In this document: positions 1-10,382 of the stretch, piece by piece
How the letters are laid out: each line of letters starts with the position of its first letter
Position numbering within the stretch: the first letter of the stretch is position 1
NCBI GenBank assembly: GCA_043785185.1
Contig: JAYVXL010000840.1
Location: forward strand, 1-10,382
DNA length: 10,382 nt
Reading direction: 5' to 3'
Source of the DNA: Myxococcales bacterium
Lineage (GTDB): Bacteria > Myxococcota_A > Polyangia > Polyangiales > Polyangiaceae
Translations under genes and position numbers: made by a program
The notes under the pieces: generated by a model
Database searches by the model: none
The model's input: only the letters and a program-made list of their open reading frames with translations
Told to the model about the DNA's origin: nothing

Positions 1-1
1 G

Positions 2-811
2 CAGCTCGCGTTCGCCGCCGAGCGGCACCTGTTCGGGGGTCTGGTGCGCGCGCTCTTCGGCCTCGGTTTTTCGAACACGGTACTCCGGCAATACACCGGT
101 CGACTCACCGACGCGGACGGCGCGGGCGGCACCGTGCAAGCGCCCGAGGCGCCGACGCGCCTGGCGACCGACTGCGCGGCGGGTCGCGTCGTCGGGTGCA
201 GCGGCGGCTGGGACAACGTGCTGCGCCTCGGCCTGTCGATCGACACGCGCGACTACGAGCCCGATCCGAACTCCGGCGTCTACGCCGAGCTCTCCAGCGA
301 GTACGGCTTGCGGGGCCTCGGCTCGGACTACAGCTACGCGCGCGTCCTGGGCTCGGTGCGCCTCTTCTACAGCCCGATCCCGGAGATCGCCGATCTCGTC
401 CTGGCGTCACGCCTGCTCTACGAAATCCAGACGAAGGGGACGCCCTTCACCTCGATGAACAACCTGCCGTTCATCGACGACAACCACGCCGGCCTCGGCG
501 GCTTCCGCACGCTGCGCGGCTATCGCGACAGCCGCTTCGTCGGCCCCGTCATCGCGCTCACGAACTGGGAGGTGCGGTGGACCTTCGCGCGCTTCCGCGC
601 GCTCGGCCAGAGCTTCGCGCTCATCGGCGTGCCGTTCCTCGACGTAGGTCGCGTGTTCGACGACGTCGCGACGACGTCCTTCAAGAGCTGGAAGCGCACG
701 CAGGGCGGCGGGCTCCGCATCGCGTGGAACGATTCGACGATCGTGATGGTGGACTACGGATTCAGCGACGAGGACGCGGGGCTCTATGTGAACTTCAACC
801 ACATCTTCTAG
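2..811 (+). CDS. Omp85/BamA-family (bacterial surface antigen) outer-membrane beta-barrel protein, C-terminal part; 5' end lies outside the window
   Basis: The frame is open from the window edge, so the GTG at 44 is only the first start-like codon. It carries the barrel motif GLGGFRTLRGYRDSRF and alternating hydrophobic strand patterns. It ends in the typical OMP signature with a C-terminal aromatic residue (...LYVNFNHIF*). Third-codon-position GC is high. Confidence 0.7.
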   Translation, partial: QLAFAAERHLFGGLVRALFGLGFSNTVLRQYTGRLTDADGAGGTVQAPEAPTRLATDCAAGRVVGCSGGWDNVLRLGLSIDTRDYEPDPNSGVYAELSSEYGLRGLGSDYSYARVLGSVRLFYSPIPEIADLVLASRLLYEIQTKGTPFTSMNNLPFIDDNHAGLGGFRTLRGYRDSRFVGPVIALTNWEVRWTFARFRALGQSFALIGVPFLDVGRVFDDVATTSFKSWKRTQGGGLRIAWNDSTIVMVDYGFSDEDAGLYVNFNHIF

Positions 812-815
812 CGCC

Positions 816-1544
816 TCAGCACCGGCACGCGAACGAGGCGCCCGACGGCGAGCACGTCTCACCGCCGATGAACCCGCAGCAGAAGAAGCCGAAGCAGCAC
901 GAGTTGCCGCACCGGCCGCAGTTGTTGTCCGACGAGAGCGACGTCTCGCAGCCGTTGGCCGGATTGCCGTCGCAGTCGCCCCAGCCGGGGAGGCACCCGC
1001 TGCACACGCCGACGGTACCGCCGTTGCCACACATCTGGTGGCCGGGGCAGTCCGAGGCGGCGCAGCAAGAGTGGCACGCTCCGTCGGCGCAGACGCGCTG
1101 GCCGACCGGACAGCCGCAGCTCCCGCCGTCGAGGATCGAGCCCTCGGGGCAGCCGAAATCGCAAGTGCCCGCGTCGCTGCACGTCGCAAAGCCGGAGCCG
1201 GGCGACGGGCACATCTCGCCGCAGCCGAGCGCGCAGCCCGCTTCCGGAAAATTCGACTGGGTCGGCGCGCAGGTCTTGCCGCACGCGTGGAGACCGGGCG
1301 TGCACGTCCCGCAGCCGGGCCCGGTGAAGCCGTCGGGGCAGCCGGCGTCGGCGCGCGGGCCGCCGGTATCGCTGTCCGCGGACGCTTCGGAGACCGTCGC
1401 GTCGCTCGGACCCGGTGTCCCGGCTTCGTCGGTGCCGTCGCCGCCGAGCGTGTCCGTCGCCGCGCCGTTGGCGCACGCGACGAGCCGGAGCAGCGCGCCG
1501 ATGGCCGCGAGCGTGAGGACGTTTCGGGGGAGGCTCAGCCGCAT
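816..1544 (-). CDS. Cysteine-rich secreted lipoprotein (33 Cys in 242 aa), EGF-like / C-x-x-C rich repeats
   Basis: The signal peptide has a canonical lipobox (LLRLVA|C) and is followed by an acidic low-complexity linker. Dense Cys patterns follow, e.g. CPDGFTGPGCGTC and GDCDGNPANGCETSLSSDNNCGRCGNSC. It is convergent with the Omp85 gene, with 4 nt between the stops. Confidence 0.7.
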   Translation of the reverse strand: MRLSLPRNVLTLAAIGALLRLVACANGAATDTLGGDGTDEAGTPGPSDATVSEASADSDTGGPRADAGCPDGFTGPGCGTCTPGLHACGKTCAPTQSNFPEAGCALGCGEMCPSPGSGFATCSDAGTCDFGCPEGSILDGGSCGCPVGQRVCADGACHSCCAASDCPGHQMCGNGGTVGVCSGCLPGWGDCDGNPANGCETSLSSDNNCGRCGNSCCFGFFCCGFIGGETCSPSGASFACRC

Positions 1545-1556
1545 CGTCGGTGGCGC

Positions 1557-1585
1557 AATCTACGAGGGAAGTCCGAGCGGGGCAA
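1557..1585 (-). promoter_or_regulatory. Candidate sigma-70-type promoter for the Cys-rich lipoprotein (-35 TTGCCC, 17-nt spacer, -10 TAGATT); predicts a very short leader
   Basis: On the minus strand, TTGCCC (1585-1580) is separated by 17 nt from TAGATT (1562-1557). The ATG at 1544 lies 12 nt downstream of the -10. No Shine-Dalgarno is visible. Confidence 0.3.
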
Positions 1586-1655
1586 ACCAATAGGTGGGCA
1601 GGTGTAGGGCGCGCTTGCCGCGCGCCGACGCGCGAGGCCTTGCCTGCGCGGCGCG

Positions 1656-2987
1656 TCAGAGCGTCGCGAGGTAGGCGCGGAGCGCGGCGCGATCCGCGTC
1701 GCCCAGCGCGAGGCCGAAGAGGTGGCCGCGGACGGGGCCGCCGCGCTCGCTCTCGAAGTCGGGGCGGACGCGCGCAGGATCGAACATCGCATCGAGGCTC
1801 GGGAGCGACGCGTCGTGAAGGAGCGCGCGACGCGACGCGACGCCGTGGAGCGACGGCACGCGGTAGCTTCCGGTGCCGCGGTCGGTGGAGAGGCCGATCG
1901 CCGGATCGGTGCCGACCACGTCGAGCGGCACCGGCGGCCCTGAGAGCGCGGGCGGCGCGTGGCAGCGCGCGCAGGTCGCCTCGAAGACCGCCGCGCCCCG
2001 GGCCTCTGCGCCGTCCCTCGGCGGCGCCGCCGGGAGCGCATCCGCGAGCGACCACACGAAGGCCGCGAGCCCCAGCGACACCTCGCGCGGCGGACGAACC
2101 TGCGCGCCGTGCGTCGTGATGATCAGCGTCTCGATGCGCACCGCCAAGGTCGCGCGATCCTTCTGCGCGACGGACGCGTCGGCCTGGAGATGCGTGAGCC
2201 ACCGCACCGGGCGCAGGTCGGCGATCTTGACCGGCTCCGCGCCGCGCAACGTCGTGACGTCGACGCGCCCCGGCCCCCACGCGCGCCACGGCGCTGCGGC
2301 CTCGGGCGACTGGCCGCGGCGCACGGCGGCGTCGCCGAAGAGGCGCCCGAGCTCGAGCCGCTCGTTGCCGAGGCCGACGATCAACCCGCCTTCGGGCGCG
2401 CGCGACGACGCGTGGCACGTCGCGCACGTGAACGCGAGCGCGGGCGCGCGCGCCGGCAGCTCCACGCGCACGAGCGCCGCCGCGCCGCGCGCATCGTCCG
2501 TCCAGAAGCCGTAGCTCGCGAACGCCTCGCGCGACGCGGTCGCGATCTGCGCGGAGGCGTCGATCTGCATCGGGTAGCGGAAGAACGCGTCCTCGCCGAG
2601 CGCGCGCAGCGCCGCCTCTTCGCCGCGCCGCGCTTCGTCGGAGATCGCGAGCGCGCGCGCGTCGGGACCGAGCGCCGCCGCCCCATCGACGCCGCCCGGC
2701 GCGTCGAGATCCGTCGCGCGCACGACGTCGACGCGCGGGTTCCACTCGGGCAGCGCGGCCCAGTCGCCCGCTTGCCCCGTCTCGTAAGCCGCGAGGCGCC
2801 GTCGCGAGTAGCCGTTGTCGGGGTTCACGAGCGACGCCACGAGCGTCGCGCGGCGGAACGCGCCGCTCGCGAGGTAGGGCTCGTTCGACGGCGCGGCGAC
2901 GCTGCCGGCGAAGCACGCCGACGCGAGGGCCGCGCTCGCCAGCGCTGCCACGGCGCGACGAACGAAGGGACGCGAGGGCGCGGGCAT
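1656..2987 (-). CDS. Di-haem cytochrome c, cytochrome-c-peroxidase/MauG-like superfamily, exported
   Basis: There are two CxxCH haem-binding motifs: CATCH (2412-2426) and CARCH (1959-1973). The C-terminal haem-domain stretch YRVPSLHGVASRRALLHDASLPSLDAMF resembles the CCP/MauG motif (F/Y)KxPSLRN...HDGS..LE. An N-terminal signal peptide is present (AVAALASAALASA|C). Confidence 0.8.
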   Translation of the reverse strand: MPAPSRPFVRRAVAALASAALASACFAGSVAAPSNEPYLASGAFRRATLVASLVNPDNGYSRRRLAAYETGQAGDWAALPEWNPRVDVVRATDLDAPGGVDGAAALGPDARALAISDEARRGEEAALRALGEDAFFRYPMQIDASAQIATASREAFASYGFWTDDARGAAALVRVELPARAPALAFTCATCHASSRAPEGGLIVGLGNERLELGRLFGDAAVRRGQSPEAAAPWRAWGPGRVDVTTLRGAEPVKIADLRPVRWLTHLQADASVAQKDRATLAVRIETLIITTHGAQVRPPREVSLGLAAFVWSLADALPAAPPRDGAEARGAAVFEATCARCHAPPALSGPPVPLDVVGTDPAIGLSTDRGTGSYRVPSLHGVASRRALLHDASLPSLDAMFDPARVRPDFESERGGPVRGHLFGLALGDADRAALRAYLATL

Positions 2988-3132
2988 GCTGCGGACGGAG
3001 CACAGACGATGCCATCGCGCAGACGCGCGTGACCGCGCGAACTTTCGCCCCGACCCACCGATCGCCGACGCACACCTGGCCCACGTTGGCCCACCGGACC
3101 GGGCGCATCCGCCCGCGTACCGCCGGCCCCAG

Positions 3133-3753
3133 CTACTTTTTCGCGGCGGCGGCGGCGCGAACCTGCGCGAGGATGTCCGCCGGCGACGGGCGATCGGTCA
3201 TCTCCTCACCGACGCGCTTCCACGCCACGGAGCGGTCCTTGCGGACGATGAACGTCGCCGGCACCGCGATGTCGCGCCCGTCCATCGCGACGCCGTACGC
3301 CGTGATGACGTGCAAATCCATGTCGGAGAGCAGCGGGAACTGGAGCCCGAGCTCCTGGGCGAGCTTGGCCGACTCGTCGGCCGCGTCGACGCTGATGGCG
3401 ACGACCTGGGCGTGCTGGGCCTCGAGCTGCGGTCGAATCTGCTCCAGCTGCACGAGCTGGCTGCGGCAGAAGGGTCACCAGAAGCCGCGGTAAAAGACGA
3501 GCACCGCGGGCCCGTTGGCCGTGAGCGTCGCGAGCGAGACCTTCGCGCCCGTTTGGTCGGCGAGCGTGAAGTCGGGCGCTTGCGCCGCCGCGAGCGTCTG
3601 CCCGGCGCGTCGGGCGATGGGCCTGTAAACGCCCGCCGCGACGATCGCGCCGAGCACCACGACGACGATCGCGAGCCCGATGAGGACGCGCCGCACGACG
3701 CGTCGTGTGCGGGACGGCTGCGGTGCGACGACTTCGGCGGACATCGGTGGCAC
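3133..3753 (-). CDS. Membrane-anchored AhpC/TSA (Prx-like) thioredoxin-fold redoxin with an in-frame TGA at the first Cys of the CxxC motif (candidate Sec; otherwise a pseudogene)
   Basis: ORFs 3475..3753 and 3133..3453 are in the same frame. Read-through gives ...AVLVFYRGFW-[TGA 3475-3477]-PFCRSQLVQLEQ..., 206 aa in total. The N-terminus has RTRRVVRR followed by one TM helix (LIGLAIVVVVLGAIVAAGV). The start is either GTG 3753 or ATG 3744. Confidence 0.6.
3438..3470 (-). promoter_or_regulatory. Candidate bacterial SECIS-like hairpin directly downstream of the in-frame UGA
   Basis: On the mRNA, the lower stem is UCUGC/GCAGA and the upper stem is CCAGCU/AGCUGG (3444-3460). The apical loop is CGUGC and begins 21 nt after the UGA. 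There is an asymmetric internal loop. Confidence 0.35.
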
Positions 3754-3796
3754 GAATCTACCACGCCTCGAGAAGATCGGTCTTGTGGAGGCCGGG

Positions 3797-3825
3797 TTGC
3801 CCGGGGCCCCGCGAGGTCTTATGTT
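3797..3825 (+). promoter_or_regulatory. Candidate ssrA promoter (-35 TTGCCC, 17-nt spacer, -10 TATGTT)
   Basis: TTGCCC lies at 3797-3802 and TATGTT at 3820-3825. This would give a short 5' leader, removed by RNase P, before the mature G at 3848. It is a motif match only. Confidence 0.25.
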
Positions 3826-3847
3826 CCTTGAGCCTCATCCCCAATTC

Positions 3848-4278
<431 letters not shown>

Positions 4279-4410
4279 CGTGCTCCGTCTCTCAGAGCAG
4301 AGCCAAAGCTCAGTCGCGCCGGCCGATGCGGCGCCCGATGTGTTTCCGGGCGGGCTCGGCAGCCGTCACAGTCGAGATCGCCCTACGCATGCCCTCGACG
4401 GAGTCGCAGG

Positions 4411-4725
4411 TCACGAGCAGTTCGCCCGCGAGCGTAACGAGCGCGTAATCAGCAGAGACATCGCGGCGAGGCCGAGCCCGAAGGCGCCCGCGTGCAACGC
4501 GCTCCGCGGCTCGAAGTCTCCAACGCGCAAGAGCAGCGCGTAGGCGACGACGAGGTTGCCCAGTCCATACATGACGTTCACGCGCGGCGACGACAGCCCG
4601 CGGAACGGGGGCGAGGCGAACGGGGTCGGAAACGTGCGCCCCAGCACCCCCGAGACGAAGTGCGGGACGAAGTTTGCGAAGAAGGCGCCCGCGAAGAAGT
4701 ACGTCGGGAAGTGAAACCAGAGCAT
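4411..4725 (-). CDS. Small hydrophobic membrane protein (about 3 TM helices), function unknown
   Basis: The protein reads MLWFHFPTYFFAGAFFANFVPHFVSG...VNVMYGLGNLVVAYALLL...AGAFGLGLAAMSLLI. GC3 is high. It is divergent from the TetR gene. Confidence 0.5.
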   Translation of the reverse strand: MLWFHFPTYFFAGAFFANFVPHFVSGVLGRTFPTPFASPPFRGLSSPRVNVMYGLGNLVVAYALLLRVGDFEPRSALHAGAFGLGLAAMSLLITRSLRSRANCS

Positions 4726-5374
4726 GCGACCTCCGAACGCCGAGCTGGCCGAGTCCGGCTACAGGGCATTTCGCATGGACGTGGCGAGCGCGGCGGCCGG
4801 GGTCAACAAGACCACGATCTACCGGCGCTGGCCCGGCAAGAAGCAACTCGTGGCGGCCGCTGTCGACTGGATGCGCAGGTTCGTGCATGACGTGCCGCTG
4901 CCCGACACGGGCTCGCTTGAGCGGGACCTCATCGAGGCCTTCCGGCGCAGGGTGAGGTTCAAGGATCGCGTCGAGGGGCAGGCGTGGGCGCGACTGCTCG
5001 CGGAGAAAAACGACCCCGACGTCAGCGCCGTCATCGGCGACGCTGTCAAGGAGCGCAGCGAGTCTTGGTACGCGATGGTCACGCGGGCGATCGCGCGCAG
5101 CGATCTCCCCGACGGCACCGACGCGCGGCTGCTCTTGGGGATGCTCGGGGCGGTCGTCGACGCGTGGAACGCGAGTTCGTCAGGCCGGCTGAAGGTCGAG
5201 CTGCTCCAGGCTGCCGTGCGCACCGTCGTCGCCGGCGCGCGCTCGGGCTCACTGGTTCGCTCCAGCGGGCGTCGCGGGACCGTGCGCGCGCTGCCACGAA
5301 TGGCGCCGGACGCGTCCGGGTTGACCCGTCATCGGAGCTCGGGGATCGCGAGCTCCGTCAAGAAGCGCAATTGA
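4724..5374 (+). CDS. TetR/AcrR-family transcriptional regulator, apparently lacking part of helix alpha-1
   Basis: The HTH region reads SGYRAFRMDVASAAAGVNKTTIYRRWPGKKQLVAAAV. Only about 10 residues precede the GY position, where TetR proteins usually have about 20-25. The stop lies 4 nt before repeat copy 2. Confidence 0.7.
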   Translation: MRPPNAELAESGYRAFRMDVASAAAGVNKTTIYRRWPGKKQLVAAAVDWMRRFVHDVPLPDTGSLERDLIEAFRRRVRFKDRVEGQAWARLLAEKNDPDVSAVIGDAVKERSESWYAMVTRAIARSDLPDGTDARLLLGMLGAVVDAWNASSSGRLKVELLQAAVRTVVAGARSGSLVRSSGRRGTVRALPRMAPDASGLTRHRSSGIASSVKKRN

Positions 5375-5378
5375 ATCG

Positions 5379-5468
5379 CGATTCCCGGCGCCTCCACCAC
5401 GGGACCGCGGTTTTCCGGGGTTTCGTCGTCTTGTGGGGACGTGTTGTGCACCCGTTGTGCAGGTCGGA
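5379..5468. repeat. Direct repeat copy 2 (attR-like): an orphan 3' end of ssrA with a degenerate terminator hairpin
   Basis: It shows the same 32-nt exact block as copy 1. The terminator stem carries a 1-nt deletion and mismatches (ccgggg ttt versus ccgcgg tcc). Downstream blocks ttgtggggacgtgttgtgcacc and gttgtgcag are conserved. Confidence 0.9.
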
Positions 5469-5530
5469 GGCCGCGATGGTGGGACGGCGACAGTTGCCGC
5501 AGGCTCCATCTACCCCGTAGCCTCAGGCGC

Positions 5531-6031
5531 ATGGGCAACGATGGCGTTCGCGTGGTACCGCCGCTGCAGACGCCGGAAGAACTCGAACAAGCCGCAGACG
5601 ACGCTGTCGAGACTTACGGCAAGACGACGACGATCGCGACGCGGTGACCGCCGCGAACGCGATCAACAAGGCGTTCCGCAAGACGGGCAGCGACGACCTC
5701 AAGAGCGCTCTCGACAAGTTCGACCCGCAGGGTGGTGCAGTCGTGGGCCCCCGCGACTCCGCGAAGCCATCAGCACGACCTCGGACCGCCTTCTGCGCCT
5801 CGTCGTGGCTCGGGGCTGGCCGGTCGACCTCGGACCGCTCCACGGCTCGAGCCGGATCTTCAGCCTGGATACTCGACGCAGTTCACGACGGCGCCCGGCG
5901 TCGCGCGGCAGCCACGCGGACGCCAGCAGGCCGAGGCCAGGGGGTATGGCTCGATGTCGGCGTCGATTCCGCACGTGTCCGGACGCTCGGGACCGACGGC
6001 TCGTTTCGTTTGCTTCGACTGTTTCGAATGA
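5531..6031 (+). pseudogene. Unknown gene disrupted by three successive frameshifts
   Basis: Protein-like, high-GC3 coding signal moves between frames: frame 2 at 5531-5646, frame 1 at 5644 to about 5762, frame 0 at about 5763-5875, and frame 2 at about 5873-6031. No frame stays convincing throughout. Confidence 0.3.
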
Positions 6032-6066
6032 TTCGGATGGTGCTACCTTCTCTCTGAGGTCTCGCC

Positions 6067-6519
6067 ATGAACACCGCCGCCGTGAAGGTCCCCACGACCG
6101 AAGCTGCCGAGCAAGCCCAGTTCGCGCTCCGTGCCCTCGGCAAGATCAAGTCGAAGAAGACCGCGCGCACGCTTCAGGTGAGGCCCGAGGGTGGTCCCGA
6201 CGTGGCCGTCACGGTGCCGCGCGAGGCGTTCGAGCTGTTCCTGGAGATCCTCGGGCAGATGGCCAACGGCAACGCCGTTACCATCGTTCCGGTTCATGCG
6301 GAGCTGACGACCCAAGAGGCCGCCGACATGCTCAATGTCTCACGCCCCCACCTCATCGAGCTGCTGGAGACTGGCAAGATCGGCTTCCGCAAGGTCGGCA
6401 CGCACCGGCGCATTCGCGTGGGGGACCTTCTGGGCTATCAGCAGGCGGATCAAGCCGAGCGAAAGGCCGCGCTCGACGAGCTTAGCCAAGAAGCCCAGAA
6501 GCTCGGCCTCGGGTACTGA
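6067..6519 (+). CDS. Excisionase-family helix-turn-helix DNA-binding protein (HTH_17 type), probable antitoxin of a PIN toxin-antitoxin pair
   Basis: The protein contains ELTTQEAADMLNVSRPHLIELLETGKIGFRKVGTHRRIRVGDLLGY. A GAGG RBS lies 7 nt upstream of the ATG. A PIN start follows 8 nt downstream. Confidence 0.8.
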   Translation: MNTAAVKVPTTEAAEQAQFALRALGKIKSKKTARTLQVRPEGGPDVAVTVPREAFELFLEILGQMANGNAVTIVPVHAELTTQEAADMLNVSRPHLIELLETGKIGFRKVGTHRRIRVGDLLGYQQADQAERKAALDELSQEAQKLGLGY

Positions 6520-6527
6520 CGGCGGCG

Positions 6528-6620
6528 ATGGCCTTCGTCGTCGTCTACGACGCCTGCGTCCTCTACCCGGCGCCCCTTCGCGACCTACTCCTTCGGCTCG
6601 CCGCCATGCACGCATCCTAG
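6528..6620 (+). pseudogene. PIN-domain toxin gene remnant (first 30 codons only)
   Basis: The remnant reads MAFVVVYDACVLYPAPLRDLLLRLAAMHAS*. The VVYDACVL...LRDLLLRLA pattern matches the N-terminus of the PIN toxins paired with HTH_17 antitoxins, including the first acidic residue. The 8-nt gap to the antitoxin stop is typical of a TA operon. Confidence 0.55.
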
Positions 6621-6626
6621 CCTCAC

Positions 6627-7052
6627 TTGGCGTTGGTCCTTCTCACCGGTGGAGCAAGGCACGGAAGCGGGGGATCTTCAGTCCGCAAGCTCGTCTGGAC
6701 GAGCTCCGACCCCGAGCTTCCGAACGCGAGCGACATCGAATGGCAGGTCGCGCACAGCTGGCTGTTTCGTCTGCGGATCCTTCCTCAGATCTCGGTGAAT
6801 ACGGCCGAGCACGAGCGCCAGGCCGGTAACTTGTCGGGCGCTGTCGAGCATCTGCGGCTCGCCGTCGAGGCGGATCCCGAAGATGCCGGGGCCTGGATTG
6901 CGCTCGCCCTCACCCTCGAGCAGTCCGACCGCACGACGGAGGCAGAGGCCACTTGGCGCCACGCCATCGACCTTTTCCCCGGCGATCCGCGGACCCACGG
7001 CGAAGCGGCGCGATTCTTCCGCCAACGCGACAGGGGCGGTGGGAACCTTTAG
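6627..7052 (+). CDS. TPR-repeat-containing ORF, probably a 5'-truncated fragment
   Basis: The TPR-like sequence is AGNLSGAVEHLRLAVEADPEDAGAWIALALTLEQSDRTTEAEATWRHAIDLFPGDPRTH. GC3 is good from about 6680. There is only a TTG start, and the ORF is in the same frame as the PIN remnant, separated by a single TAG. Confidence 0.4.
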   Translation: MALVLLTGGARHGSGGSSVRKLVWTSSDPELPNASDIEWQVAHSWLFRLRILPQISVNTAEHERQAGNLSGAVEHLRLAVEADPEDAGAWIALALTLEQSDRTTEAEATWRHAIDLFPGDPRTHGEAARFFRQRDRGGGNL

Positions 7053-7081
7053 CGCGCGTTGTTGTGCGGCAAGCGCGTTTT
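7053..7081 (+). terminator. Candidate intrinsic terminator after the TPR ORF
   Basis: The stem CGCGC(G)UUG / CAAGCGCG has 8 bp and one bulge. The loop is UUGUGCGG and the hairpin is followed by UUUU. Confidence 0.4.
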
Positions 7082-7151
7082 CCCCGAAGAGCCATCTCAC
7101 CGGGCGCGTGGCAGGCGATCGATCCGCCGTCCGCTCGATACGTTCGCTCAT

Positions 7152-7169
7152 GATCCATCATCCTGGATC
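7152..7169. promoter_or_regulatory. Perfect inverted repeat GATCCA-N6-TGGATC, a possible activator (EBP) site
   Basis: The palindrome is seen directly in the sequence. It lies about 90 bp upstream of the sigma-54-like element. Confidence 0.25.
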
Positions 7170-7241
7170 GGGGCACACCCACGCGCGAAGTGCGTCCCGC
7201 CCTATCGCACGAGAAAGAATCGTGAAAAAGACTCATGCGAG

Positions 7242-7257
7242 TGGCACACAGCATGCT
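7242..7257 (+). promoter_or_regulatory. Sigma-54 (-24/-12) type promoter candidate for the lysyl-oxidase-like gene
   Basis: TGGCAC-acagc-ATGCT compares with the consensus TGGCAC-N5-TTGCW. The GG (7243-7244) and GC (7255-7256) have the canonical spacing. It lies about 50 nt upstream of ATG 7307. Confidence 0.4.
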
Positions 7258-7306
7258 ACTGACTCCCACCCTGTACCTGACGACGACAAATGGGGAGGCG
7301 GTTCCA

Positions 7307-9214
7307 ATGGGCATGGGATGGAAGACGGGTCTTGGGGGGATTGGAATCGCGCTGAGCATGCTGGGGTACGCGTGCAGCAGCGATCCCGGAGCGCTGAGCG
7401 GCGCTAGGGAGAATCCGTCCCAAGTGACGTCGGGTTTGACCACGGCGGGTGCTCTCGTGCGCATGGACATGAGCTCCACGGTCGGCGTGCTCCTCGACGA
7501 TCTCCCGCTGGCCAACCGCGACGCGGCCGCGGCCGCCGCGCTCGCCCAGCCCGCCAGCTTTTGGACCGACCGCGCGACGCGGCAGGCGCGACTCACGTAC
7601 TACCGACTTGCGTTCCGGGGAGGCTTCTACACGACGACGCCTCCGAAGGGGCCCCTGCCTCTGCCTCCGGATCCCGTCTGGCACATCCAGCTCACGGGAC
7701 GGCCGCAGCGCGCAACGATCGGCGGTCACGATCTGGTCGTCGTGAACTACTCGTTCAACTCGTACATCCTCAGCGATACGACGTCGCCGGGGATCGTGGA
7801 GCCCTCGCTCGGCACAGTTGGCGGAACGTGGGACGAACCCTTCAATCTCCCCATCGATCCGGAGCTTCTGCTCCAGCGCACGGGCTACGCCTGCATGGAC
7901 GAGTTCGAGTACCCCGCGGGGAGCGTGTTCGAGGAGAACGCCTACTATTTCTACGACCAGACCTGCACGGCAGGGTCAAAGTACTGCCACGTCACGAATT
8001 TCCCAAGCTTGGGATGCGGCGACGCGCTCGAGAAATACGTGGGGAACATCAAGCCGGAACTGCATTTCGCCCGCGTTGCGTACGATGCAACGCTCGCGAG
8101 CCAGTTTCGGGTCGGCACCGTCACGCCCGCAACGCAGAGCATCGCGACCGGGGCCGCCGATCTCGCGGTCGTCCAGGAGCCGCTGCGCGACGAGCACCGC
8201 ATTGCCTACCGTTTCTTCGGGCCCGGCTCCTGCGACCTCGGTGAGGGGACGATCGCGCAGCTCGGTTGGCGCCGCCTGCTCATGTTCTCGGCGGTGGTTC
8301 GAAACGACGGGACGGGGCCGGTCCACATCGGCAACGTGACCGATCCCACAAACCCATGGGTCCAGGCAGGCGCCTTCGAGTACAGCGCTTGCCACAAGCA
8401 CTACCACTTCAGCCACTACGGCTCCTTTAGCTACAACGGCTTGCCCGGGAGCAAGCGGGCGTTCTGCCTCGAAGACACGAACCGGTACCACAACGACGAG
8501 GTCACGCCGCTTACGGCGGTTCACCAGAGCTGCGAGTACCAAGGGATCGGCGCCGGATGGGGAGACGAGTACCAGTTCGGTCTCCCCGGACAGTGGGTCG
8601 ACATCACCGCCACCAGCACTTCGGCGACATCGGGCCTCTCGAACCAGCTGACGTTCGTCTCGAACAAGGATCAGTACATGTGTGAGGGAGCGCTTGGCAG
8701 CCCGCTTTTCCCCGTGGACGCGAGCGGCAAAATCATCTTTGGGTCGAAGCCCAACTGCACGTTCTTCTCGGGTTGGGGTAGCAACAACTCAGGCAGCGTG
8801 ACGGTCACCTCCCCGGGCGGGAGCTTCGTCACCGAGGCTTGCACGCGCGGACAGATCGGACCCAAACGCGATTGCGGCTTCACGGACACGCAGGCCCTCC
8901 ACAGCTGCGCATCCGGAAGCACGGTCAGACTCAAGTGCTCGACCACCGCAAGCACGCCCCAAGTCTTGCGCCTCTGCGAAAGGAGCGCGCAGCTCGGCGT
9001 GGGCGTCGCCTGCACCCTCGCCGACTCGGCCGCGAACGCGCTGGTCGATTCCGGCGGCACGAACGTGACCTTTGCGTGCCCAGCGGTGCGCGACGCCGCG
9101 CTCGACACCTCCGGAAATCCGACGACCAGCCCCGGGGTCGGCGGCTACTCCGTTTACAACGCGCCGCTCAGCCCGTCGGACACGGCCGGAGCGATCACCT
9201 GCACGGGCTGGTGA
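7307..9214 (+). CDS. Secreted lysyl-oxidase-family (copper amine oxidase, LTQ-type) protein with large unassigned N-terminal and Cys-rich C-terminal regions
   Basis: Several segments parallel human LOX:
- WRRLLMFSAVVRNDGTG matches HRVLLRFPQRVKNQGTS.
- FEYSACHKHYH matches WEWHSCHQHYH (the Cu His triad, at 8393-8407).
- GSKRAFCLEDT matches GHKASFCLEDT (Lys at 8453-8455).
- GWGDEYQFGLPGQWVDIT matches GCYDTYGADIDCQWIDIT (Tyr at 8570-8572).
The start is placed at ATG 7307, with GGAGG at 7294-7298 and the signal peptide MGMGWKTGLGGIGIALSMLGYA|C. Confidence 0.85.
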   Translation: MGMGWKTGLGGIGIALSMLGYACSSDPGALSGARENPSQVTSGLTTAGALVRMDMSSTVGVLLDDLPLANRDAAAAAALAQPASFWTDRATRQARLTYYRLAFRGGFYTTTPPKGPLPLPPDPVWHIQLTGRPQRATIGGHDLVVVNYSFNSYILSDTTSPGIVEPSLGTVGGTWDEPFNLPIDPELLLQRTGYACMDEFEYPAGSVFEENAYYFYDQTCTAGSKYCHVTNFPSLGCGDALEKYVGNIKPELHFARVAYDATLASQFRVGTVTPATQSIATGAADLAVVQEPLRDEHRIAYRFFGPGSCDLGEGTIAQLGWRRLLMFSAVVRNDGTGPVHIGNVTDPTNPWVQAGAFEYSACHKHYHFSHYGSFSYNGLPGSKRAFCLEDTNRYHNDEVTPLTAVHQSCEYQGIGAGWGDEYQFGLPGQWVDITATSTSATSGLSNQLTFVSNKDQYMCEGALGSPLFPVDASGKIIFGSKPNCTFFSGWGSNNSGSVTVTSPGGSFVTEACTRGQIGPKRDCGFTDTQALHSCASGSTVRLKCSTTASTPQVLRLCERSAQLGVGVACTLADSAANALVDSGGTNVTFACPAVRDAALDTSGNPTTSPGVGGYSVYNAPLSPSDTAGAITCTGW

Positions 9215-9596
9215 AACGCTTGGCCTCCGAACCGAGCCGCCAACGCGGACCTTCGCCGCACGCAGCGTCGCGGGGGTGAGCTTCGCCCGCGGCCTCGAGC
9301 GCGCGGCTGTTGGCGAGCGCGCGGTGGTAGGGGTAGTGCAGTGCGAGCAGCGGTCGGTCGGGTATGGCGTCGTCGAGCTCCTGGCGGGTCGGCGCGCGCC
9401 GTTCGGCCAATCCCGCCTCGTCCCAATCGGCGGCGATGAGCCACTGCCCGGGGGGCGGCGGCGGCGCTGGCAGCAGCAAGAGCGCGCTGCAATCCCGCGA
9501 TATCGACGATCGCGGGCGGCCGAGGCGCACCGTTCCCCCGTAGAGGGCGTGGATGCAGGGGTGGTGGGGCGCGTCGATGAATCCGGGGGTGACGGT
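9195..9596 (-). pseudogene. Amidohydrolase (Amidohydro_3-type) gene remnant lacking both the N-terminal about 50 aa and the C-terminal about 300+ aa
   Basis: The minus-strand frame reads TVTPGFIDAPHHPCIH...GQWLIAADWDEAGLAERRAPTRQELDDAIPDRPLLALHYPYHRALANSRALEAAG. There is no proper start; an upstream in-frame TGA lies at 9654-9656. The metal-site DAHxH reads DAPHH. Recognisable similarity ends near 9285 and the frame runs into the 3' end of the LOX gene. Confidence 0.55.
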
Positions 9597-9806
9597 TGAA
9601 CGCGCCGACGCTTGCAGAATGCAACAAGGCGCTCGACAACTCTTGGCGATATCTCACGGCACAGCGCCTCGCGGTCTCGTGTACTCTCGCAGAATGCCCG
9701 CCGGCGCCCCACGCACCTCGTGGCTACGCCAGGGGTTAGCGGTGCTCATTGGTACCGTCACCCTTGGCGAAGAAGGCAGAGATCGATCGCACGTTGGGGT
9801 GCGGTC

Positions 9807-10382
9807 GTGAAGGGGTCAATCCTTCTCGCCTTCTTCGCGGCGATGGGGTGCTCGCGAACCGCCACGCGTCCGGCACCGTCCTCGTCGAGCAGCACGGATG
9901 CGACAACGTTGGCCGCTCCGCAGTCGACTACGCGTGAACAGGTCTCGGTGACCGCCAAGGGAGATCCCTTCGGACTTCGCGTTGAAGGCGGAACGATCTC
10001 CTTCTGCGACAAGCGCGGGGGTCGAAAGATCGACCTCGCAACCGGCGAGGATGCTGCGTTCGAGCGAACGTGCTCGAGAGACCGCGAGCCGAACACCGCG
10101 TGTGGTGAGCTTCCGCTTGAGGTCACAGTGAGTACGCCCGACCTCGGCCCAAACGATCTCGTAGACGTGAACGGCTCGCGCTTTCCACTCGACGGTCGAG
10201 TTCACGACTGCACGGCCGACGTGAAGGTGCTCACCATCGTCACGGGGGCGTCGGTGGTGGTGATCGACGCGGCAACGAATAAGAGCAACGTTCTCGATCA
10301 CACGGGAGGGGATCGGGCGGCGATCGGGCCGGGGTGGATTGCGTGGACGAGCGGCTCGACGGTTCGGGCGAAGCGCCGATGA
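9807..10382 (+). CDS. Hypothetical small exported protein, possible lipoprotein
   Basis: The GTG start at 9807 gives VKGSILLAFFAAMG|CSRT followed by a Ser-rich linker. The upstream 65 codons of the longer ORF (9612-) are Arg-rich and not protein-like. The stop is at the window end. Confidence 0.5.
   Translation: MKGSILLAFFAAMGCSRTATRPAPSSSSSTDATTLAAPQSTTREQVSVTAKGDPFGLRVEGGTISFCDKRGGRKIDLATGEDAAFERTCSRDREPNTACGELPLEVTVSTPDLGPNDLVDVNGSRFPLDGRVHDCTADVKVLTIVTGASVVVIDAATNKSNVLDHTGGDRAAIGPGWIAWTSGSTVRAKRR

Follow-up and report, generated by a model that had tools for sequence, protein, structure and literature searches.

An intact three-domain member of the lysyl oxidase family encoded on a contig of a Myxococcales bacterium

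We analyzed a 10,382-nucleotide stretch of DNA from a Myxococcales bacterium (GenBank assembly GCA_043785185.1, contig JAYVXL010000840.1, positions 1 to 10,382; hereafter "the window"), which carries, at positions 7307 to 9214 of the forward strand, a gene for a lysyl oxidase (LOX)-family protein. This gene, intact and ordinary in kind, belongs to a large bacterial LOX subfamily. Its catalytic identity is already caught by routine annotation, as several family members bear the NCBI name "lysyl oxidase family protein"; the new elements are an N-terminal domain without a known relative and a fixed three-domain architecture. By its residues and by analogy with characterized LOX enzymes, the protein is probably an exported amine oxidase with copper and a lysine tyrosylquinone (LTQ) cofactor.

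A complete gene of the lysyl oxidase family

The gene and the parts of its product are as follows (aa, amino acid residues; pLDDT, predicted local distance difference test score; GC3, GC content at third codon positions).

7292..7298, + strand: ribosome-binding site GGGGAGG, 8 nt 5' of the ATG at 7307, read from the sequence
7307..9214, + strand: complete LOX-family gene encoding 635 aa (stop codon 9212-9214; GC 65.7%, GC3 84%)
7307..7375, + strand: signal peptide, aa 1-23, MGMGWKTGLGGIGIALSMLGYAC, hydrophobic and ending at Cys23
7376..7441, + strand: low-complexity linker, aa 24-45 (mean column conservation 0.24; pLDDT below 50 over aa 1-45)
7442..8146, + strand: family-specific N-terminal alpha/beta domain, aa 46-280, without a Pfam or PDB relative, modelled alone
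8147..8818, + strand: LOX catalytic domain, aa 281-504, with limits inferred from LOXL2 numbering and from alignment to a short Polyangia LOX (L025)
8258..8617, + strand: Pfam-matching LOX core (PF01186), aa 318-437
8390..8407, + strand: copper motif CHKHYH with C362, H363, H365 and H367, equivalent to LOXL2 C625 and H626/H628/H630
8453..8455, + strand: K383, the LTQ lysine, in the motif SKRAFCLED, equivalent to LOXL2 K653
8570..8572, + strand: Y422, the LTQ tyrosine and fourth metal ligand, in the motif GWGDEY, equivalent to LOXL2 Y689
8672..8782, + strand: family-specific insertion of variable length, aa 456-492, bracketed by the invariant C459 and C484 and lying within the last part of the LOX domain
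8819..9211, + strand: C-terminal Cys-rich beta domain, aa 505-635, with eight Cys (512, 523, 534, 544, 557, 569, 591 and 632)

An intact open reading frame (ORF) spans 7235..9214 (+). A start codon at 7235 was rejected in favor of the one at 7307, because the latter follows the ribosome-binding site, is the start used in the public gene call (P0001; 635 aa, 100% identical to the window protein) and lies at the place equivalent to the N-termini of the homologues. GC contents at the first, second and third codon positions of the gene are 59%, 54% and 84%, respectively, and this pattern represents the normal coding signature of a high-GC organism.

The window protein belongs to the lysyl oxidase family. 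A Pfam profile search placed aa 318-437 in PF01186 (Lysyl_oxidase; E = 4e-12; 46.6 bits, cut-off 20.4), and an NCBIfam search of the whole protein gave no match. Searched as a single sequence against PDB, the protein matched human LOXL2 (5ze3) and no other entry (E = 1.7e-7); a profile of 30 family members reached 5ze3 at E = 1.6e-14. The AlphaFold2 model of the full protein, which was built on the alignment of these 30 family members, had a pLDDT of 85 and a predicted template modelling score (pTM) of 0.84; when this model was compared with PDB by Foldseek, 5ze3 alone was significant (E = 2e-8, probability 1.00, 226-264 columns). The intact gene, the profile match above the curated threshold, and the LOXL2 matches in sequence and in fold thus agree with the original prediction, made from the sequence alone, that a LOX-type protein is encoded at 7307-9214. 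Coding-type GC3 and colinear homologues of 50-61% identity that cover 85-100% of the protein without a frameshift further indicate that the gene is intact and under selection.

Conservation of the catalytic residues

The catalytic motifs of the window protein and of LOXL2 align as CHKHYH/CHRHYH, SKRAFCLEDT/HKASFCLEDT and GDEY/WDMY, respectively. LOXL2 residue numbers were assigned by counting along the 5ze3 chain; in this count, 27 residues separate the His from the Lys and 36 residues separate the Lys from the Tyr, which is consistent with H626, K653 and Y689. The zinc/copper ligands and LTQ precursors of LOXL2 have been set out previously (PMC5899467). Among 30 homologues, K383, Y422, C362 and C387 were invariant (30/30), and the His triad was present in 25. 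The assignment of the copper-binding histidines and of the LTQ lysine and tyrosine, which had been made by correspondence with the human enzyme, is therefore borne out by the profile search and the LOXL2 matches in sequence and fold as well as by conservation across the family; the window protein keeps every catalytic residue, together with all 18 Cys of the mature protein.

Candidate Cys equivalents lie at the positions of LOXL2 C625 and of C657-C673, and, by sequence alignment only, C309, C362, C387 and C409 could give the LOXL2 disulfides C573-C625 and C657-C673. No Cys equivalents of the LOXL2 disulfides C579-C695 and C663-C685 were found in the window protein. At the places where the LOXL2 calcium-site residues D549/L550 and N727/N728 would be expected, the window protein has the conserved D285/L286 and N493/N494. 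The insertion at aa 456-492 is missing in the short Polyangia LOX L025, and its length differs across the three-domain family.

Two conserved domains flanking the LOX domain

The N-terminal domain (aa 46-280) contains four invariant Cys (196, 220, 227 and 237) and the motifs GPLPLPP and LPxDPELLxxRTGYACMDE. Modelled separately, it gave a pLDDT of 90.4 and a pTM of 0.88. No Pfam match was found for this domain even at E <= 10, and no solved relative was seen when its model was compared with PDB by Foldseek (best E 0.23, template modelling score <0.2). Searched exhaustively with phmmer, 1.84 billion representative proteins yielded 289 relatives of the domain (E <= 1e-3), 84 of them at E <= 1e-30. 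In the long ones (520-810 aa) the domain sits at or near the N-terminus, and the shorter matches are compatible with fragments. Among ten distant relatives tested (31-45% identity), eight carry PF01186; the N-terminal domain thus accompanies LOX in the members tested.

The C-terminal domain (aa 505-635) is all-beta in the model, with a pLDDT of about 85-96. Pfam gave no match for this region at E <= 10, and a profile search of PDB gave only a chance match (E 1.1). Through aa 592, the module can be aligned to the C-terminal end of LOX proteins of 444 aa that occur in Polyangia. For the LOX of Sorangium, earlier work had noted a C-terminal domain rich in Cys (PMC6452851), and we infer that the domain found here is the same one. 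As the prediction had counted, nine Cys (C484 to C632) lie in the last approximately 170 residues of the protein.

Mean column conservation was 0.66 for the N-terminal domain, 0.71 for the catalytic core and 0.59 for the C-terminal domain, and all three show strong purifying conservation. The prediction had described both flanks as regions that could not be assigned. In one respect this description stands, as neither flank has a Pfam match, the C-terminal region has no sequence match in PDB and the N-terminal domain has no fold match; the structure predictions it had proposed for the flanks gave a confident N-terminal domain without a PDB relative and an all-beta C-terminal module. The flanks are not, however, orphan sequence, since both are conserved domains of the family. 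The N-terminal, LOX and C-terminal domains are predicted to be packed as one compact unit, and the two outer domains most likely control substrate access or targeting.

The placement of a separate domain ahead of the catalytic domain also raises the possibility of a zymogen, in which an N-terminal pro-domain would hold the oxidase in a latent state, to be released by proteolysis of the variable linker at approximately aa 270-284, like the propeptide of animal LOX. This would fit with the variable-length linker before the LOX domain (pLDDT 57 at aa 271-280, with indels in the alignment) and with the observation that N-terminal truncation raised the activity of the Haloterrigena enzyme (PMC6452851). 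However, the N-terminal domain is conserved nearly as well as the catalytic core and models as an autonomous fold (pLDDT 90), unlike the disordered animal propeptide; moreover, no conserved cleavage motif was seen in the linker and no protease gene was linked. We therefore consider latency of this kind unlikely, and ranked it third among the roles weighed here.

Evidence for export

A hydrophobic N-terminus is present in 107 of 112 full-length homologues, in agreement with the prediction that the protein is secreted, and 37 of the 112 have a lipobox-like motif. In the window protein, Cys23 may be a lipid-attachment site; the lipobox L-G-Y-A-C (within MLGYAC) is atypical. The mature protein contains 18 Cys, an even number that is enough for nine disulfides, so an oxidizing extracytoplasmic location fits. 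Together, the signal-like N-terminus and the Cys content point to a protein that would act outside the cytoplasm.

A widespread subfamily in soil bacteria

A whole-protein search that scored 8000 candidates yielded at least 563 clusters (clustered at 90% identity) of proteins that have the complete three-domain architecture. The best 120 homologues were 531-682 aa long, showed 48-61% identity and covered 85-100% of the query (>90% in nearly all), and all 120 carried a precomputed PF01186 annotation. Loci were located in species-representative genomes for 22 members; all 22 are in metagenome-assembled genomes (MAGs), from Kofleriaceae, Polyangiales, Myxococcales, Thermoanaerobaculia, Terriglobales, other Acidobacteriota, Rokubacteria and Binatia. 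LOX homologues had been predicted to be uncommon in prokaryotes, which holds for cultured genomes and does not hold for soil metagenomes, given the number of clusters found. Previous work has described bacterial LOX as widely distributed and mostly of LOX-only architecture (Grau-Bove et al., PMC4448552). In the literature searched, we found no description of the three-domain form.

In a neighbor-joining tree of the LOX protein, the window protein grouped with two Kofleriaceae sequences, and phyla were intermixed elsewhere, a pattern that could reflect either gene exchange among soil lineages or noise from binning. In the same tree, a Kofleriaceae and an Acidobacteriota LOX (loci L014 and L018) were mutually closest, and Polyangiales LOX sequences nested among those of Acidobacteriota and Rokubacteria; these placements suggest either gene transfer between phyla or mis-binned contigs.

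Comparison with known enzymes

The window protein resembles LOXL2 (5ZE3) and the animal LOX and LOXL1-4 enzymes in its beta-sandwich catalytic fold, in its predicted secretion, and in the shared C-H-x-H-x-H motif, the Lys in K-x-x-F-C-L-E-D-T and the Tyr in D-x-Y. It differs from them in that it has neither SRCR domains nor a propeptide and carries an insertion of 37 aa close to where the catalytic domain ends; conversely, neither flanking domain of the bacterial protein, N-terminal or Cys-rich C-terminal, occurs in the animal enzymes.

The LOX of Haloterrigena is an active amine oxidase that is copper-dependent, sensitive to beta-aminopropionitrile (BAPN) and relaxed in its substrate specificity (PMC6452851). 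Like the window protein, it has a hydrophobic N-terminus, the His triad, the Lys and the Tyr, and it represents the best guide to the activity to be expected here (i.e., copper-dependent, BAPN-sensitive, with a broad range of amines). Compared by its published description only, it has no described counterpart of the 235-aa N-terminal domain or of the Cys-rich C-terminal domain (PMC6452851).

Two short LOX ORFs of 444 aa occur in Polyangia/Deltaproteobacteria MAGs (L025, positions 5644-6975; L026, positions 5584-6915). These proteins are 30% identical to the window protein over its aa 275-592, a stretch that takes in the LOX domain and the greater part of the Cys-rich module, and lack both the N-terminal domain and the aa 456-492 insertion; their PF01186 match is at E = 1e-32. 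Their N-terminus is of low complexity and is followed by a canonical LOX domain and by the Cys-rich module that the window protein also carries at its C-terminus. By description, they are probably of the type noted in Sorangium cellulosum (WP_012233967.1), and they possibly represent the ancestral two-domain form.

Copper amine oxidases, which contain topaquinone (TPQ), and the LodA/GoxA lysine and glycine oxidases, which contain cysteine tryptophylquinone (CTQ), catalyze the same reaction as LOX (amine and O2 to aldehyde, NH3 and H2O2) and, like LOX, build a quinone cofactor from their own residues. Enzymes of the LodA type are bacterial secreted proteins that exert their effect through H2O2. 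The folds and cofactors of both groups are unrelated to those of LOX, and the searches run here found no similarity in sequence or fold between either group and the window protein.

A related clade without the copper histidines

Within this three-domain family, the copper histidines are missing from a monophyletic clade of Terriglobales and other Acidobacteriota, which has lost them. The sequence C-H-x-H-Y-H-F-S-H-Y is replaced by C-D-x-E-W-D/A-F-N-x-Y, and H406 is replaced by Y; a few members show M-x-E-x-E at the copper motif. Nearly all members, which are about 50% identical overall to the window protein, keep the motifs of the LTQ Lys (KRAFC[LI]ED) and of the LTQ Tyr (GWGDEY). The clade was recorded at loci L015, L019, L021 and L024 and in the proteins P0078, P0092, P0094, P0097, P0100, P0101, P0106, P0107, P0111, P0114, P0115, P0117 and P0119, as well as P0110, P0113 and P0142. 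Its members would either use another metal or be pseudoenzymes.

Proposed activity and possible substrates

According to the mechanism that we consider probable, the signal peptide, possibly with lipid attachment at Cys23, would send the protein out of the cytoplasm, and H363, H365 and H367 of the LOX domain would bind Cu(II), with Y422 and K383 alongside. By inference from LOXL2, LOX and the Haloterrigena enzyme, the bound copper would oxidize Y422 to a quinone, the epsilon-amine of K383 would add to this quinone to give LTQ, and LTQ would then deaminate primary amines to aldehydes, with release of NH3 and H2O2. As substrates, one would expect either free amines or the Lys side chains of proteins and peptides located outside the cell or on its surface.

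Several observations weigh against this mechanism. Of the 204 positions of the PF01186 profile, only 48-162 are matched, and the short Polyangia proteins match it more strongly, indicating that the three-domain branch is divergent. Identity to LOXL2 is only about 20-30%, candidate Cys equivalents exist for only two of the five LOXL2 disulfides (the other three have no counterpart), and the calcium site is recognizable only in part, as equivalents of E722 and D724 were not identified. As the His triad is lost in the sister clade, copper chemistry is not obligatory family-wide. In addition, no conserved neighbor gene that would indicate a substrate was found at the loci examined.

The LOX gene stands alone, without a conserved operon partner. 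No conserved neighbor was found among the called genes at six homologues, in an all-versus-all BLAST of ORFs from 28 loci, or in a Pfam census of 42 flanking ORFs; the sole recurring neighbor, MacB/FtsX, was limited to closely related Acidobacteriota. SDR/ADH-type NAD(P) oxidoreductases were considered as adjacent partners, being present at four of six loci at first, and were rejected when the pattern was not upheld in 11 further loci.

A solitary gene, without a dedicated substrate gene, would suit a broad-range extracellular amine oxidase that acts on free amines, polyamines, peptides and cationic antibiotics, supplies ammonia as a nitrogen source, directs H2O2 against competitors or prey, or inactivates aminoglycosides and polymyxin. 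We ranked this role first and consider it a plausible candidate, at somewhat less than an even chance. The sole characterized prokaryotic LOX has a relaxed specificity that includes taurine, glycine, aminoglycosides and polymyxin (PMC6452851), and the patchy occurrence of the family across soil phyla, with a tree that mixes phyla, is typical of an accessory, transferable trait. On the other hand, turnover of small molecules would not obviously require two large accessory domains with such strong conservation, and the adjacent oxidoreductases, which could have processed the aldehydes, did not form a consistent pattern.

The competing role is that of a structural cross-linker, which would oxidize lysines of the organism's own surface or matrix proteins so that the resulting aldehydes condense, as animal LOX does with collagen and elastin, and which would thereby harden a biofilm matrix, sheath or spore coat. 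Here the catalytic machinery is of the protein-lysine oxidase type, the protein would be exported and possibly membrane-anchored, the nearest relatives are Kofleriaceae, within the matrix-rich Myxococcota, and the accessory domains could dock on a polymer; a fold match to the collagen-binding domain of ColH was sub-threshold (E 0.2, probability 0.57) and came from a search that does not report the query region aligned. However, no collagen-like, elastin-like or other candidate substrate gene recurred in 17 loci, Acidobacteriota, Rokubacteria and Binatia, groups in which multicellular development is not known, carry the family just as commonly, and the fold matches to binding domains (beta-sandwich, full-length search) were not significant. 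Moreover, cross-linking of bacterial collagen-like proteins was thought unlikely by Grau-Bove et al. (PMC4448552). We thus regard cross-linking as tentative and ranked it second; the zymogen arrangement discussed above could combine with either of these two roles.

Genomic setting and integrity of the gene

Other features of the window that bear on the history of the gene are listed here.

1656..2987, - strand: cytochrome c-domain ORF (GC 76.8%, GC3 93%), strongly coding
3848..4208, + strand: ssrA (transfer-messenger RNA) with the tag ANDNAIALAA (ARAGORN; Rfam RF00023, 162 bits)
4188..4278, + strand: left repeat, comprising the last 21 nt of ssrA, the terminator hairpin and about 50 nt
4724..5374: TetR-family gene, in the 1.19-kb insert between the ssrA repeats
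5379..5468, + strand: right copy of the ssrA 3'-end repeat, 87-97% identical, 1191 bp downstream
6067..6519: HTH_17 protein
6627..7052, + strand: TPR-repeat ORF, 141 aa (TPR_14, E 4e-11)
6678..7151, - strand: publicly called gene, 157 aa, without a Pfam match; GC3 (0.70) is below GC at first positions (0.79), i.e., non-coding-like
9195..9530, - strand: Amidohydro_3 gene fragment, 111 aa, covering profile positions 55-128 of 472 only

The ssrA gene lies 3.1 kb upstream of the LOX gene. The insert between the ssrA repeats also holds a 192-aa ORF on the opposite strand, and repeats and insert together resemble a scar left by the integration of a small element at ssrA. The LOX gene itself may or may not belong to an ssrA island. 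The two repeats bound the TetR insert only and end ahead of the LOX gene; between that gene and the right end of the window, a third ssrA 3'-end copy was looked for and not found, and no integrase domain was found among the window ORFs scanned, the HTH_17 protein being the only find. The public call at 6678..7151 may be on the wrong strand, and the TPR ORF that overlaps it may be a gene fragment. A tRNA-Arg(CCG) of 84 nt reported by ARAGORN at 1841-1924 (+) was rejected; Rfam gave no tRNA there at its gathering threshold and the call lies inside the cytochrome c-domain ORF, so it is probably a false positive. A scan for promoters and terminators around the LOX gene gave nothing above chance.

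At the 3' end, the Amidohydro_3 fragment overlaps the stop codon of the LOX gene by 20 nt, and GC content there changes from about 65% to about 73%. The remnant and the jump in GC content suggest that the 3' end of the LOX gene lies at a rearrangement breakpoint, which appears to have removed most of the amidohydrolase gene. In 500-nt intervals, GC content was 70-78% from approximately 750 to 3500, 62-70% from approximately 3500, just left of ssrA, to 9000, and 73% past the LOX stop codon. In 60-nt intervals, the LOX gene ranged from 53 to 80% (mean 65.5%). The prediction had put the GC content of the gene at 55-60%, which is too low; its claim that the gene lies below the genes to the left is correct, as the cytochrome c ORF shows. 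The features of the tract next to ssrA, its lower GC content among them, suggest acquired DNA. The earlier description of this tract as rich in decay was largely borne out by the duplicated ssrA 3' end, the Amidohydro_3 fragment and the short TPR ORF.

These surroundings bear on whether the LOX gene is an inactive relic that decays along with its neighbors, or a non-catalytic binder that uses the LOX fold as a scaffold only. The gene does sit among a piece of an Amidohydro_3 gene, a short TPR ORF that may itself be a fragment and duplicated ssrA ends, and a related clade lacks the copper ligands. However, the frame is intact, the alignment to homologues is full-length and colinear, GC3 is of the coding type, and the catalytic residues and mature Cys are complete. 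We consider both of these possibilities very improbable, and an exported amine oxidase remains our preferred interpretation.

Implications for the family

Bacterial LOX homologues have been known since 2015, and their roles are still called enigmatic or cryptic. To our knowledge, only one prokaryotic LOX, an archaeal enzyme, has been assayed, and we know of no active-state structure of any LOX. As animal LOX enzymes are also hard to produce, a well-expressing bacterial LOX could aid structural work on LTQ.

The window offers a clean, intact example of a well-conserved subfamily that comprises hundreds of clusters in at least four phyla, and in soil this three-domain subfamily may be a more frequent form of bacterial LOX than any other, the minimal proteins of LOX-only type included. 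It also provides testable handles, i.e., an N-terminal domain without a Pfam or PDB relative and a natural histidine-less clade beside a copper-binding majority. A more far-reaching proposal, which we hold to be improbable as a whole, is that the three-domain proteins form a distinct and widespread class of extracellular enzymes of uncultured soil bacteria, in which an N-terminal fold not described before and the Cys-rich domain aim LTQ chemistry at a specific bacterial polymer or at prey, and in which the clade with Asp/Glu at the copper site makes or uses the quinone with another metal or without. If this were true, the histidine-less clade would mean a second mode of LOX chemistry.

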